Of a stretch of 64,000 nucleotides of DNA, positions 58,227 through 62,506 are shown in pieces (position 1 is the first letter of the stretch; each line of letters opens with the position of its first letter). The stretch lies in the IMG/VR virus record IMGVR_UViG_3300021137_000006, positions 1 through 64,000 of that record, one strand, 5' to 3'. Under the pieces are notes generated by a model. That model did no database searches. It saw only the letters and a list, made by a program, of their open reading frames with translations, and had not been told where the DNA came from. Origin of the DNA: a virus. A program made the translations under genes and the position numbers.

Positions 58227-58302
58227 GCAGCCATAGCTCAGTTAGGAGAGCACCGGATTGAAACCCCGGGTGTCGCTGGGGCGGATCCAGCTGGTTGCAC
58301 CA
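58227..58302 (+). tRNA. tRNA-Phe(GAA), second copy, atypical T loop
   Basis: Loop TTGAAAC; T arm GCTGG-GGCGGAT-CCAGC; CCA. Confidence 0.85.
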
Positions 58303-60583: not shown

Positions 60584-60591
60584 TGAAATGT

Positions 60592-60708
60592 AGTTGCTCC
60601 TGCTGGGCCAGGAGTTCCCACCGAGGGTAGTATGCTATTCGATTCAGCTGAAAGTATGGTACACATAAATCCGCACGGTTCGGAAAGGTTCGAATCCTTT
60701 AGCAACTT
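60592..60708 (+). ncRNA. tRNA-like RNA with acceptor stem and T arm but a non-canonical middle of about 85 nt
   Basis: AGTTGCT/AGCAACT stem stacked on AAAGG-TTCGAAT-CCTTT; no CCA. Confidence 0.55.
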
Positions 60709-60716
60709 CGTATATT

Positions 60717-60791
60717 GCCCTTGAAGTGTAGACAGCGACACACTTGTTTCGTAATCAAGAGAGTGGTGGGCAGGTCACCACAAGGGCACCA
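60717..60791 (+). tRNA. tRNA-Thr(CGT), atypical T loop
   Basis: Loop TTCGTAA; T arm TGGTG-GGCAGGT-CACCA; CCA. Confidence 0.83.
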
Positions 60792-60871
60792 TTTAAAAGA
60801 GTTTTCGTCCCCTGCGAGAATTCTTCTAAATGGTCGGATTTTTCAGACTATATACATTAAGCGGATACAGA

Positions 60872-61288
60872 ATGGCGTACAGCAAGCACAATATAACATG
60901 CTTACACTGTGGCACGGAGCGAGAACAGAGCAAACACTCAGCAAGAGGAAAGTTCTGTTCAAACAGGTGTCAAGTTGATTACCAGTACAACCAGTTTATA
61001 CAGCGTTGGTTAGCTGGCGAGGAGACTGGTTTGAGTGGACAGCGTGGAATAAGTTTGCACGTTCGACGTTTTGTATTTGAAAAGTTTGATAGCAAGTGTG
61101 TTGAGTGTGGCTGGAATCAAAAGCACCCAACAGATGGTCGAATTCCACTGGAAGTAGATCACATAGATGGTAACTGGATGAATACGACGGAATCTAATTT
61201 GCGGTTGTTGTGTCCAAACTGTCATTCACTTACGATAACTTATAAGTCGAGAAATCGACAGAGTAGTAGAAAGTACAAGCCCGATTAG
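60872..61288 (+). CDS. HNH endonuclease
   Basis: FCSNRC, CVECG and LEVDHIDGN...NLRLLCPNCHSLT; ATG 60830 is an alternative start. Confidence 0.9.
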   Translation: MAYSKHNITCLHCGTEREQSKHSARGKFCSNRCQVDYQYNQFIQRWLAGEETGLSGQRGISLHVRRFVFEKFDSKCVECGWNQKHPTDGRIPLEVDHIDGNWMNTTESNLRLLCPNCHSLTITYKSRNRQSSRKYKPD

Positions 61289-61426
61289 CTCAGGGGTAGA
61301 GCAACCGCCTTTTCGGAGAGGATAATGACCTCTCTCCACAGGAGATTCTCACGAGTCTCCTGTACAGGAGGATAACTCCAAAAGGTAAGCGGTAGGTCGT
61401 CTGTTCGAATCAGACATTGGGCACCA
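61279..61426 (+). tRNA. tRNA-Thr (TGT or GGT) with a 73-nt insert in the anticodon
   Basis: Canonical halves GCCCGAT...ACCGC-CT(T) and (G)GTAA-GCGGT...GTTCGAAT...ATTGGGC-ACCA flank three hairpins. Confidence 0.85.
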
Positions 61427-61433
61427 AAATTTA

Positions 61434-61508
61434 GCTCCTAAAGTGTAGATGGCGACACACTGGTTTTGTAATCCAGAAAGCGAGGTTCAAGTCCTCGTGG
61501 GAGCACCA
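61434..61508 (+). tRNA. tRNA-Thr(TGT)
   Basis: Loop TTTGTAA; CCA. Confidence 0.9.
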
Positions 61509-61513
61509 TATAT

Positions 61514-61588
61514 GGGTCGTTAGTTCAGCGGTAGAACTCTATCCTTACACGGTAGCTGTCGGCGGTTCGATCCCGTCACGACCCACCA
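61514..61588 (+). tRNA. tRNA-Val(TAC)
   Basis: CTATC-CTTACAC-GGTAG; CCA. Confidence 0.93.
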
Positions 61589-61594
61589 CCTTAT

Positions 61595-61669
61595 ACGCGG
61601 GTAACTCAGAGGCAGAGTAACTCTGTTACATAGAGAAGGCCGGGATTTCGAAATTCCCCCTGCGTACCA
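61595..61669 (+). tRNA. tRNA-Val(TAC), second divergent copy
   Basis: CTCT-GTTACAT-AGAG; CCA. Confidence 0.85.
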
Positions 61670-61673
61670 ATTT

Positions 61674-61748
61674 GCCCATTTATTTCAGTGGTAGACAGCT
61701 TTCTTGGTAAGAAAGAGGACATTGGTTCAATTCCAATAATGGGCACCA
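61674..61748 (+). tRNA. tRNA-Thr(GGT)
   Basis: CTTTC-TTGGTAA-GAAAG; CCA. Confidence 0.9.
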
Positions 61749-61792
61749 CTTATTGCCACCAATTCCCAGCAATCTCTGCTGTAAGTAACTAC

Positions 61793-62506
61793 ATGGCAAA
61801 AATCTTCTTACGCTTACCATCCACGTCTTCAGTGGACCTACGACCAGATGCTGATTATGTTATCAATCAGCAATCGTACGGCTCTTGTACAGCAAACGCA
61901 GGGTGCGCGTGCATGGAAATTATGTACAAGCAACGTAATGATGTGTCGATCGAATTTAGTAGATTGTTTTTATACTTCTGTGAGCGGACATTAGAAGGTG
62001 CACCCGACGACGATGTCGGTGCACCGGCTGTTCTAATTGGAGAATCTTTACTAACTTACGGAGTGTGCAAAGAAGAATTGTGGCAATATAATAAAGAGAA
62101 TATGTTCGATACTCCACCCCAAGCTGCGTTTGATCAAGCACTCTCTTATAGAATTGCTGGATATCGACTATTAGATGGAGCCTTACTTACCGCAATTAAA
62201 ACCAGTTTGAATAACGGTGTCCCAATTTTGCTTAGTTTAATTGTAACAACGTCATTCAGAACCTTGACGGGACCCTGGAAGACTCATAACTGGAACACTA
62301 CAATAACACGTAGTAATAAAGTACTCGGTGGACACGAAGTTGCGATCATTGGATATGATGATGCTGCTAAGCGACTGTTAATTGAAAATTCCTGGGGACG
62401 CGGATGGGGAGATGGTGGATTCGGCGGCATTCGATATAGCGCTATCGATTCTCAACTATTCGGAGACCTGTGGGTCCTACAACCAAATTTTGCGACTGTA
62501 TCATAA
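61793..62506 (+). CDS. Papain-like (C1) cysteine peptidase
   Basis: VDLR, NQ..YGSCTANA, SRLFLY, GGHEV..IGYD and NSWG..WGDGG; start moved to ATG 61793 to avoid the tRNA. Confidence 0.9.
   Translation: MAKIFLRLPSTSSVDLRPDADYVINQQSYGSCTANAGCACMEIMYKQRNDVSIEFSRLFLYFCERTLEGAPDDDVGAPAVLIGESLLTYGVCKEELWQYNKENMFDTPPQAAFDQALSYRIAGYRLLDGALLTAIKTSLNNGVPILLSLIVTTSFRTLTGPWKTHNWNTTITRSNKVLGGHEVAIIGYDDAAKRLLIENSWGRGWGDGGFGGIRYSAIDSQLFGDLWVLQPNFATVS

Follow-up and report, generated by a model that had tools for sequence, protein, structure and literature searches.

A 73-nt intron-like insert in the anticodon loop of a phage tRNA-Thr(UGU) gene that adjoins an HNH homing-endonuclease gene

Introns in the tRNA genes of bacteria and phages are taught as self-splicing group I ribozymes. 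In passages of a 2014 review, all phage introns then known are placed in protein genes (PMC3984707). The closest described counterparts of the case considered here are the 'enigmatic' introns reported by Devoto et al. (2019) from tRNAs of Lak megaphages, including tRNA-Thr(TGT), which the relevant part of that article characterizes as unclassifiable and highly conserved (PMC6784885). As far as the cited portions of the respective papers go, intervening sequences in 23S rRNA are excised by RNase III (PMC4990558), T4 Rnl1 seals breaks in the anticodon loop (PMC3400036), and collaborative homing pairs an endonuclease-less intron with an adjacent free-standing homing endonuclease (PMC2988022, PMC3984707; the former also mentions mobA and gene 60). 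The locus analyzed here belongs to a stretch of 64,000 nt of viral DNA, positions 1 to 64,000 of the IMG/VR virus record IMGVR_UViG_3300021137_000006; "the window" denotes this whole stretch. At 61279-61426, the window contains a tRNA-Thr(UGU) gene that is interrupted in the anticodon loop by 73 nt and is overlapped at its 5' end by the gene for a free-standing HNH homing endonuclease. An earlier note on this DNA, made from the letters without database searches, took bacterial tRNA introns to be always self-splicing, a statement that needs a qualifier given the non-classifiable phage tRNA introns described in the cited part of the Lak megaphage study (PMC6784885).

Boundaries, conservation and predicted fold of the insert

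ARAGORN, run with introns allowed, predicts a tRNA-Thr(tgt) at 61279-61426 with a 73-nt intron ('gcctt-Intron-gtaag'), and the Rfam tRNA model matches the same segment with 52.3 bits (E 1.1e-10) and a 76-nt insertion in the anticodon loop, so that two programs agree with the initial description of this segment as a tRNA-Thr split in the anticodon by a 73-nt insert. The 5' exon (61279..61311, plus strand; ARAGORN and Rfam) comprises the 5' strand of the acceptor stem, the D arm, the 5' strand of the anticodon stem and C32 U33 U34. The intron-like insert (61312..61384, plus strand) begins with UUCGG and ends with AAAAG. The 3' exon (61385..61426, plus strand; ARAGORN and Rfam) consists of G35 U36 A37 A38, the 3' strand of the anticodon stem, the variable loop, the T arm, the 3' strand of the acceptor stem, A73 and an encoded CCA.

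The boundaries of the insert are fixed by uninterrupted alleles of the same gene. A 28-nt stretch of the 3' exon (61396-61423) is found without a mismatch in 33 other viral contigs, in all of which the gene is uninterrupted and reads ...ACCGCCTTGTAAGCGGT...; since only the removal of 61312-61384 yields ACCGCCTTGTAAGCGGT, the insert is exactly this segment, located between U34 and G35 of a tRNA with the anticodon TGT. Of the two boundaries entertained at first, the one with a final G in the insert and a TGT anticodon survives; the alternative, 61311-61383 with the anticodon GGT, is excluded by the 33 alleles. No base differs between the two exons and the alleles of L005, L006, L011, L017, L018, L023, L026 and L030 (33/33 positions for the 5' exon). 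More generally, contigs L002-L034 carry one tRNA-Thr(UGU) allele, with few differences at most, in 33 otherwise unrelated viral contexts. There is no synteny between the window and these 33 contigs beyond the tRNA, none of the 33 is an "empty site" of the same phage that lacks both the HNH gene and the insert, and the 28-nt piece is absent from a collection of 185,579 prokaryote species genomes. Its presence in 33 otherwise unrelated contigs together with its absence from the species-genome collection indicates that this tRNA-Thr(UGU) allele is phage-borne, confined to phages and cosmopolitan in its circulation.

The interrupted gene itself recurs as well. Contigs from two other freshwater DNA runs, which come from other years and other studies, span the HNH gene together with the insert and do not differ from the window at any position, namely, a 598-nt contig of run X4 (60817-61414) and a 653-nt contig of run X5 (60995-61647). 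Run X4 additionally contains the uninterrupted allele, in another contig with different flanks, so that both alleles are present in one sample. A looser pattern search identified a single copy of the insert in L206, a viral contig of 109,810 bases (record G001). An assembly artefact, considered as a trivial explanation, is ruled out by the identical X4 and X5 contigs and by the diverged copy in L206.

The tRNA array of L206 is syntenic with that of the window: Ser(tga), Ser(gga), a spacer that is 84.8% identical, Thr(tgt) with a 73-nt insert, Thr(tgt), Thr(ggt), Arg(gcg) and Ser(gct), where the second Thr(tgt) follows the interrupted gene at the same position as in the window. The insert occupies the same 'gcctt|gtaag' site, is also 73 nt long and is identical at 69 of the 73 positions (94.5%), compared with 23/34 and 30/39 positions (68-77%) for the two exons, 50-88% for the other positional tRNAs and 683 of 996 positions (68.6%) for the syntenic array without the insert. 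At the latter rate, the binomial probability of at least 69 matches in 73 positions is 6e-8, and the insert is the best-conserved piece of the entire tRNA array, with an excess that is modest relative to the best-conserved neighbors (85-88%). Both tRNA bodies are perfect cloverleaves that differ by seven two-sided pair changes, three in the acceptor stem, two in the anticodon stem and one each in the T stem and the D stem, as counted by hand from the ARAGORN drawings. The four differences within the insert, at 61315 (where the terminal G.U pair of hairpin 1 is lost), 61325 and 61326 (in a loop) and 61364 (in a linker), break no stem. The earlier note proposed a search for the same insert in related phages and reckoned with an inactivating insertion that would not be structurally conserved among relatives; L206 turned out to be such a relative, and it retains the insert at the same site, between compensated tRNA stems.

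Taken together, these observations make it very probable that the insert is a conserved intron-like element rather than a scar. As its presence in both shows, two diverged phages have inherited or retained it. Alternatively, the two interrupted genes may stem from transfer of the insert into two working alleles, not from descent; the insert would then be a mobile element with site specificity, again not a scar.

The predicted minimum-free-energy (MFE) fold of the 148-nt gene is a cloverleaf, in which the anticodon stem is continued, past a UAA bulge, by a 5-bp closing helix (CUUUU/AAAGG; 61309-61313 paired with 61381-61385, plus strand) that is invariant in L206. Beyond this helix, the insert folds into hairpin 1 (61315-61335, 7 bp), hairpin 2 (61338-61363, 11 bp) and hairpin 3 (61367-61379, 4 bp), with the loops AUAAUGA, UCAC and GAUAA, none of which is a T loop; the three hairpins and the closing helix across the junctions, which were first proposed from the letters, are thus recovered. 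The fold energy is -61.1 kcal/mol for the 148 nt (z -4.87; 0 of 200 shuffles equally stable) and -32.8 kcal/mol for the insert alone (z -5.4; 0 of 300 shuffles). In this predicted fold, both junctions, 61311|61312 and 61384|61385, are located inside the closing helix, opposite each other and with a 2-bp offset. The bulge-helix-bulge motif is absent: the sole bulge is UAA at 61386-61388, on one strand.

Three other features of the insert were considered and dismissed. A repeated GAGGATAA in the hairpins had also been pointed out: the two copies do exist, at 61318 and 61368, but the count is not significant (3 copies in the window, a number reached in 15 of 100 shuffles) and the first copy is GAGGATAC in L206, so that GAGGATAA was rejected as a functional motif. 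The other two are a 16-codon mini-ORF behind GGAGAGG, from the ATG at 61325 to the TAA at 61375, in which the ATG is CAG in L206, and an alternative fold through the 14-nt palindrome CTCCTGTACAGGAG, in which A61364 is C in L206. Because the changes in L206 remove all three, the mini-ORF, the first GAGGATAA and the palindrome do not matter.

A search of the insert against Rfam, including group I introns, YrlA and other tRNA-like families, Y-RNA-like RNAs, small ribozymes and a second tRNA, yields no match at E<=10, which agrees with the early judgment that this is not a group I or group II intron. The group I model search that had been suggested (Intron_gpI, RF00028) likewise gives no match at E<=10 in 61200-61500; the same model does detect introns in L060 (121 and 89.5 bits), L059 (54.4 bits) and L133 (28.6 bits, E 1.5e-5, below the Rfam cut-off). 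Blastn detects no resemblance between the insert and the group I introns of L059 and L060, and 73 nt are too few to accommodate the P3-P9 ribozyme core. Its ends agree with the group I rule, with U61311 preceding the insert and G61384 as its last base, a coincidence expected by chance in about 1 case in 16.

Searches for further copies of the insert were negative throughout. Exact and degenerate patterns of the hairpins gave 0 matches in viral contigs and 0 in prokaryote genome contigs; blastn-short against the window's own record returned only the insert itself and the 14-nt internal palindrome; and a covariance model of the insert found no further member in the window and 199 other loci or in 50 whole viral records (L147, with 19.9 bits, was inspected and dismissed). 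With one copy in the record of the window and one in that of L206, the insert is not multi-copy in the manner of miniature inverted-repeat transposable elements or IS200-IS605-derived elements. Blastn of 60800-61800 and of 61300-61395 against phage isolates produced only tRNA-level or chance matches, and searches for close relatives through the peptidase protein and through a single HNH protein found none. No description of such a three-hairpin insert was encountered in the literature, where no search was aimed at the exact structure and supplementary tables were outside the scope.

Possible fates of the interrupted RNA

We tentatively favor the view that this stretch is a phage tRNA-Thr(UGU) gene with a conserved, non-self-splicing 73-nt intron-like element between U34 and G35. 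That the element is removed by proteins, i.e., actually spliced, seems quite possible, if short of probable; that RNase III and a ligase would do so is a good deal more doubtful. Removal by proteins is favored because the exons and all seven bases of the anticodon loop are kept, the element folds apart from the cloverleaf, and the junctions face each other with a 2-bp offset. The earlier note had put forward three candidate roles, namely, a mini-intron processed by a nuclease and a ligase, a shield for the anticodon and a tRNA scaffold, any of which may apply.

Under this scenario, the precursor would be trimmed like any tRNA, and the element, which is predicted to fold by itself into a three-hairpin junction, would then be removed by proteins and not by RNA catalysis. 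The closing helix (5 bp) would stack between the anticodon stem (5 bp) and hairpin 1 (7 bp), forming a quasi-continuous stack. The 2-nt 3' overhangs that cuts at both junctions would be expected to leave are the signature of RNase III cut geometry. Host RNase III could cleave both strands of the closing helix in a staggered manner, 3' of U34 and 3' of the terminal G of the insert, producing tRNA halves with a 3'-OH and a 5'-phosphate in the anticodon loop, and a phage RNA ligase of the Rnl1 type could seal these halves into tRNA-Thr(UGU). The already interrupted anticodon loop would, moreover, make the HNH gene a safe neighbor, as in collaborative homing. If this scenario is correct, tRNA-Thr(UGU) could be produced only with the help of the phage ligase, the interruption of the anticodon loop would double as protection of the gene against homing endonucleases that target tRNA-Thr, and the two-enzyme, protein-only reaction would be a tRNA splicing route not known in bacteria or phages.

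The search for RtcB or Rnl ligases and splicing endonucleases elsewhere in the genome, which the earlier note recommended, gave a mixed outcome. The record of L206 encodes an ORF of the Rnl1 family (L208, 1483-2088, minus strand; PF09511, 48 bits against a cut-off of 28.3). Small ORFs follow it on the same strand, and the Rnl1-family ORF may be split, truncated or a short form. The part of the window's phage that matches this region probably lies beyond the end of its record, as estimated from the coordinates of both records.

Several observations weigh against this reading. RtcB, PF09414, PF09511 and tRNA_int_endo (PF01974) have no match in the window's own record, which is estimated to be 23% complete, and PF09511 has no match in the control genomes either; the Rnl1-like ORF in the L206 record is short, with 202 aa that cover the first 150 of 227 profile positions. 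A 3-nt bulge and a junction interrupt the helix on which RNase III would act, and we know of no RNase III plus ligase splicing route or any precedent for one. A second tRNA-Thr(UGU) next door in both phages makes decoding independent of the interrupted gene. With only two distinct insert sequences and no compensatory change within the insert, the structure rests on energy and invariance. The exons of the window match an allele that is uninterrupted in 33 unrelated contigs, so that the intact cloverleaves could reflect recent insertion into working genes instead of selection on the interrupted gene. Finally, RNA runs X23 and X24 contain no contig over 61329-61365, only the uninterrupted type with foreign flanks. 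An X23 contig (record 2) that joins 61311 to 61385 was considered as evidence of splicing and rejected because all X23 pieces continue into sequence unlike the window; given these foreign flanks and the presence of an uninterrupted allele with foreign flanks in the DNA run X4 as well, this contig represents the uninterrupted gene of another phage and is no evidence either way.

A somewhat unlikely alternative is that the RNA is never spliced and that the tRNA body serves as a scaffold for processing and stability (RNase P, 3' trimming, CCA), which carries, in place of the anticodon loop, a three-hairpin module within a 148-nt RNA with a job of its own; this RNA might, e.g., titrate a host factor or an anticodon nuclease as a decoy or sponge. 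The higher conservation of the insert (94.5% vs 50-88% for the array tRNAs) fits a module that is recognized as such, the tRNA body is kept, and intact tRNA-Thr genes adjoin the interrupted one, as had been noticed at first inspection: the uninterrupted Thr(UGU) at 61434..61508 (plus strand; ARAGORN, and 54.2 bits with the Rfam model), which is separated from the interrupted gene by 7 nt and has its equivalent in L206, and Thr(ggt) at 61674-61748 (ARAGORN). The former is a possible functional back-up and would do the decoding if the interrupted gene acted as a scaffold or at the DNA level. Tandem pairs of uninterrupted Thr(UGU) genes in L011, L017 and L030 show, however, that a back-up copy is not specific to the interruption. 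The T4 species 1 and 2 RNAs exemplify the stable non-tRNA RNAs that are encoded in phage tRNA clusters, and among the loci analyzed here, the array of L056 contains a drum RNA (Rfam RF02958, 59.1 bits; 2737-2848), which adjoins a possible interrupted tRNA-Thr (2851-2992). Nevertheless, the insert belongs to no Rfam family, YrlA and other tRNA-like families included, and the putative module is a rare one, with no further member in the 200 loci or the 50 whole viral records. The bases C32 U33 U34 / G35 U36 A37 A38 of the anticodon loop, which a mere scaffold would not need, are kept, yet they are also part of the closing helix.

The HNH gene, the tRNA array and other interrupted tRNAs

The free-standing HNH homing-endonuclease gene (60872..61288, plus strand; Pfam HNH, 24 bits) encodes an intact protein of 138 aa; its start is set at 60872 by alignment with 19 homologs, and all residues that are invariant across the 20 sequences are present. 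Its stop codon, TAG at 61286-61288, lies within the first 10 nt of the tRNA, so that the ORF overlaps the interrupted gene by 10 nt and does end, as originally observed, inside the 5' end of the tRNA. Processing of the T4 tRNA 5' end cuts the segB mRNA (PMC2330249); because the HNH stop codon lies within the tRNA, 5' processing would similarly cut the HNH mRNA. In L206, the segment that aligns with 60584-60838 of the window at 84.8% identity is directly followed by the tRNA, which makes the HNH gene extra DNA in between, and no HNH homolog is present at the syntenic site or anywhere in the whole 110-kb record. Given that L206 lacks the gene, this comparison indicates that the HNH gene arrived separately and later.

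A large part of the story, which went unseen at first, is the membership of this HNH protein in a clade of homing endonucleases associated with tRNA-Thr. Homologs of the HNH protein (1338 at E<=1e-10) are typical residents of phage tRNA arrays. Of 11 phage isolates, which represent at least six lineages, 9 have a tRNA-Thr(tgt) no more than 100 nt from the HNH gene; homologs that are 45-48% identical adjoin tRNA-Thr in T5-like phages. Among 171 HNH loci, a set from which near-duplicates were not removed, 127 include a tRNA within 200 nt, and the nearest tRNA is tRNA-Thr in 76 of these (38 tgt, 21 cgt and 2 ggt without a long intron, as well as 14 tgt and 1 ggt with one); 15 of the 76 thus contain introns of at least 150 nt. 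Altogether, 17 metagenome loci (L133, e.g., 1127-1441, and L134, L139, L158, L161, L165, L166, L168, L169, L174, L175, L176, L181, L182, L183, L185 and L188) encode a tRNA-Thr (16 tgt and 1 ggt) with an intron of 192-241 nt that follows U36 and ends in G, and in 15 of them the intron-bearing gene is found 60-139 nt upstream of an HNH homolog. Ten of the 11 long introns tested resemble Rfam-confirmed group I introns. On the strength of these tRNA-Thr counts and of the long introns at HNH loci, this HNH clade is one that lives beside tRNA-Thr genes, often with an interrupted anticodon loop.

This context lends itself to another explanation, an unlikely one, in which the insert acts as DNA and the RNA is irrelevant: the insert would break the recognition site of homing endonucleases that target tRNA-Thr and thereby confer immunity, as an intron does in collaborative homing or the 50-nt insert of T4 gene 60 does beside mobA, or would itself be a tiny mobile element, while the interrupted tRNA would be dispensable owing to the adjacent copy. 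Here the relevant facts are that the HNH gene abuts the interrupted tRNA; that its clade occurs by tRNA-Thr in 76 of 127 loci, 15 of these being interrupted 2 nt away, at 36/37, by long introns that are mostly shown to be group I; that both alleles coexist in one sample (X4); and that free-standing endonucleases and collaborative homing provide a conceptual precedent in the cited parts of the literature (PMC2988022, PMC3984707). A second case of an HNH gene followed, after 13 nt, by a tRNA with a short insert is found in L049. However, L206 retains the insert with no HNH gene at the site or in its entire record, and the closest HNH homolog that could be placed, in L046 (66% identical), is followed by an uninterrupted tRNA-Thr that shares the GCCTTGTAAGC loop region, so that immunity does not require an insert. 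The failure to find another copy in the contig pattern scans, the 200 loci and the 50 whole viral records argues against an active transposon, and breaking a recognition site calls for neither near-perfect conservation nor strong structure.

Finally, it is highly improbable that the insert is a shrunken group I intron remnant at a 'position 3, U-1/omega-G' site, dead or dependent on a ribozyme core acting in trans: although U ends the 5' exon and G ends the insert, the CUU/.../ site is that of the tRNA-Leu(UAA) intron in Williams' naming scheme (bioRxiv 10.1101/2020.01.27.920355), a 4-bp P1-like pairing, CCUU/GAGG, can be drawn from the sequence, and group I introns are present in phage tRNA genes near these HNH genes (L059, L060, L133 and others), the two end bases agree by chance in about 1 of 16 cases, neither the Intron_gpI model (E<=10) nor blastn against the L059 and L060 introns gives a signal, the P3-P9 core cannot fit in the insert, the related tRNA-Thr introns are at 36/37 and not at 34/35, and a remnant in decay would not have kept 94.5% identity.

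The viral record from which the window is taken has 81,867 bases and encodes a T4-type portal protein, a tail sheath protein and a family B polymerase. The portal protein is 42-44% identical to those of XacN1, Xoo-sp13, CM1 and RsoM2USA, jumbo phages of Xanthomonas, Stenotrophomonas and Ralstonia; the host phage of the insert is a freshwater XacN1-like jumbo myovirus, abundant at the freshwater sites sampled in runs X1-X12. The tRNA array at 55.8-63.1 kb comprises at least 20 genes. Two tRNAs, at 58227-58299 and 61595-61666, are recognized by Rfam (49.8 and 43.4 bits) and missed by ARAGORN, and the same applies to a gene at 60717-60788 (Rfam tRNA, 35.3 bits) that resembles tRNA-Thr(CGU) and has GGGCAGG as its aberrant T loop; this gene is located within the spacer that is 84.8% conserved in L206. 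Upstream of this gene, at about 60590-60710, there is another long element with a canonical T arm.

Other phage tRNAs also contain short inserts that are not group I introns. ARAGORN in the intron mode gives false calls, and those that lack the support of a second program are uncertain; two programs agree on four cases, two in L074 (59.7 and 53.8 bits) and one each in L124 (56.5 bits) and L051 (36.5 bits), and a short-insert tRNA in L141 scores 50.4 bits. For L049, L074, L054, L051, L124 and L141, no uninterrupted homologs close enough to fix the insert boundaries were found. Several short inserts, e.g., those in L049, L074 and L156, include a T-arm-like hairpin within a long stem. The inserts of about 80 nt in the anticodon loops of L049 (1900-2055) and L074 (1072-1224 and 2206-2360) share one architecture, namely, a small hairpin, an A-rich linker and an 8-10-bp stem that encloses the T-arm-like hairpin (loops TTCGATT, TTCGAAT and TCCGACT), and the differences between the L049 insert and the first L074 insert are compensatory. 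In L156 (770-960), a complete tRNA (acceptor GCGGGAU.../...AUCCCGCACCA) is apparently nested in the anticodon loop of another tRNA, according to ARAGORN and the fold.

Rfam-confirmed group I introns are present in viral contigs at L060 305-533 and 588-777, i.e., two in one array, and at L059 2350-2537; the L060 588-777 intron is inside a tRNA-Arg(tct) and the L059 intron is inside a tRNA-Leu(taa). These contrast with the statement, in the cited passages of the 2014 review, that none were known in phage tRNA genes (PMC3984707). Additionally, Xanthomonas phage XbC2 (L036, 2096-2215) and Cronobacter phage GAP32 (L037, 2371-2491), both Mimasvirus, possess a conserved, unannotated tRNA-like element of about 120 nt downstream of an HNH gene, with an expanded anticodon region that contains a CTTGTAAT loop.

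Comparison with described systems

The arrangement of the locus resembles collaborative homing in that a free-standing HNH gene is located beside a gene interrupted at a highly conserved site, with clade members beside group I-bearing tRNA-Thr genes; L206 would correspond to the stage of an 'intron without endonuclease' and the window to the stage with the endonuclease. In contrast to collaborative homing, for which F-CphI/psbA is reportedly an example, the interrupting element in the window is not a self-splicing intron, and the closest HNH homolog that could be placed is found by an uninterrupted tRNA-Thr. As in T4 segB, the HNH ORF is inside a tRNA array and its end overlaps the next tRNA, but the segB and T5-like systems of tRNA-array endonucleases have no insert in the neighboring tRNA. 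Gene 60 of T4 carries a 50-nt insert, next to mobA, that is skipped by ribosomal bypassing. Like that case, the window combines a short non-intron insert with an adjacent HNH homing-endonuclease gene in a gene of an essential type; gene 60, however, is a protein gene with an unusual mode of read-through, whereas the interrupted gene in the window encodes a tRNA.

With the group I introns of tRNA genes, the insert shares its location in the anticodon loop, U at -1, G as the last base and the loop position of the classical tRNA-Leu(UAA) intron. It differs from the group I introns in tRNA-Thr found here (about 190-240 nt) in its length of 73 nt, the lack of a catalytic core, and the lack of an Rfam match or sequence similarity. 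The 23S rRNA intervening sequences, as described in the cited passages (PMC4990558), are similar in that a structured insert replaces a loop and a closing helix permits a staggered double cut; the rRNA pieces stay unjoined, however, whereas a tRNA cut in the anticodon loop would need ligation to decode.

The system lets one ask whether an interrupted anticodon loop is a way to live with homing endonucleases that target tRNAs, and the 148-nt gene is a small, clean substrate for distinguishing among splicing by proteins, a scaffolded RNA and mere tolerance. As far as the Lak 'enigmatic' introns are described in the part of the study cited (PMC6784885), both they and the present insert are located in the anticodon loop of phage tRNAs, belong to no Rfam class and are nearly identical between variants, with a splicing route that is not known. 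The Lak tRNA-Thr insert is described there as possibly encoding a tRNA, unlike the insert in the window, which has no T loop or tRNA signal and is predicted to form a three-hairpin junction; furthermore, the Lak phages are gut phages, unlike the freshwater XacN1-like jumbo myovirus considered here. The insert thus appears to be a structurally different addition to the few short, unexplained phage tRNA inserts on record since 2019, with exact boundaries, with conservation across diverged phages while the surrounding tRNAs turn over, and with an HNH neighbor that has relatives paired with genuine group I introns of the same tRNA.

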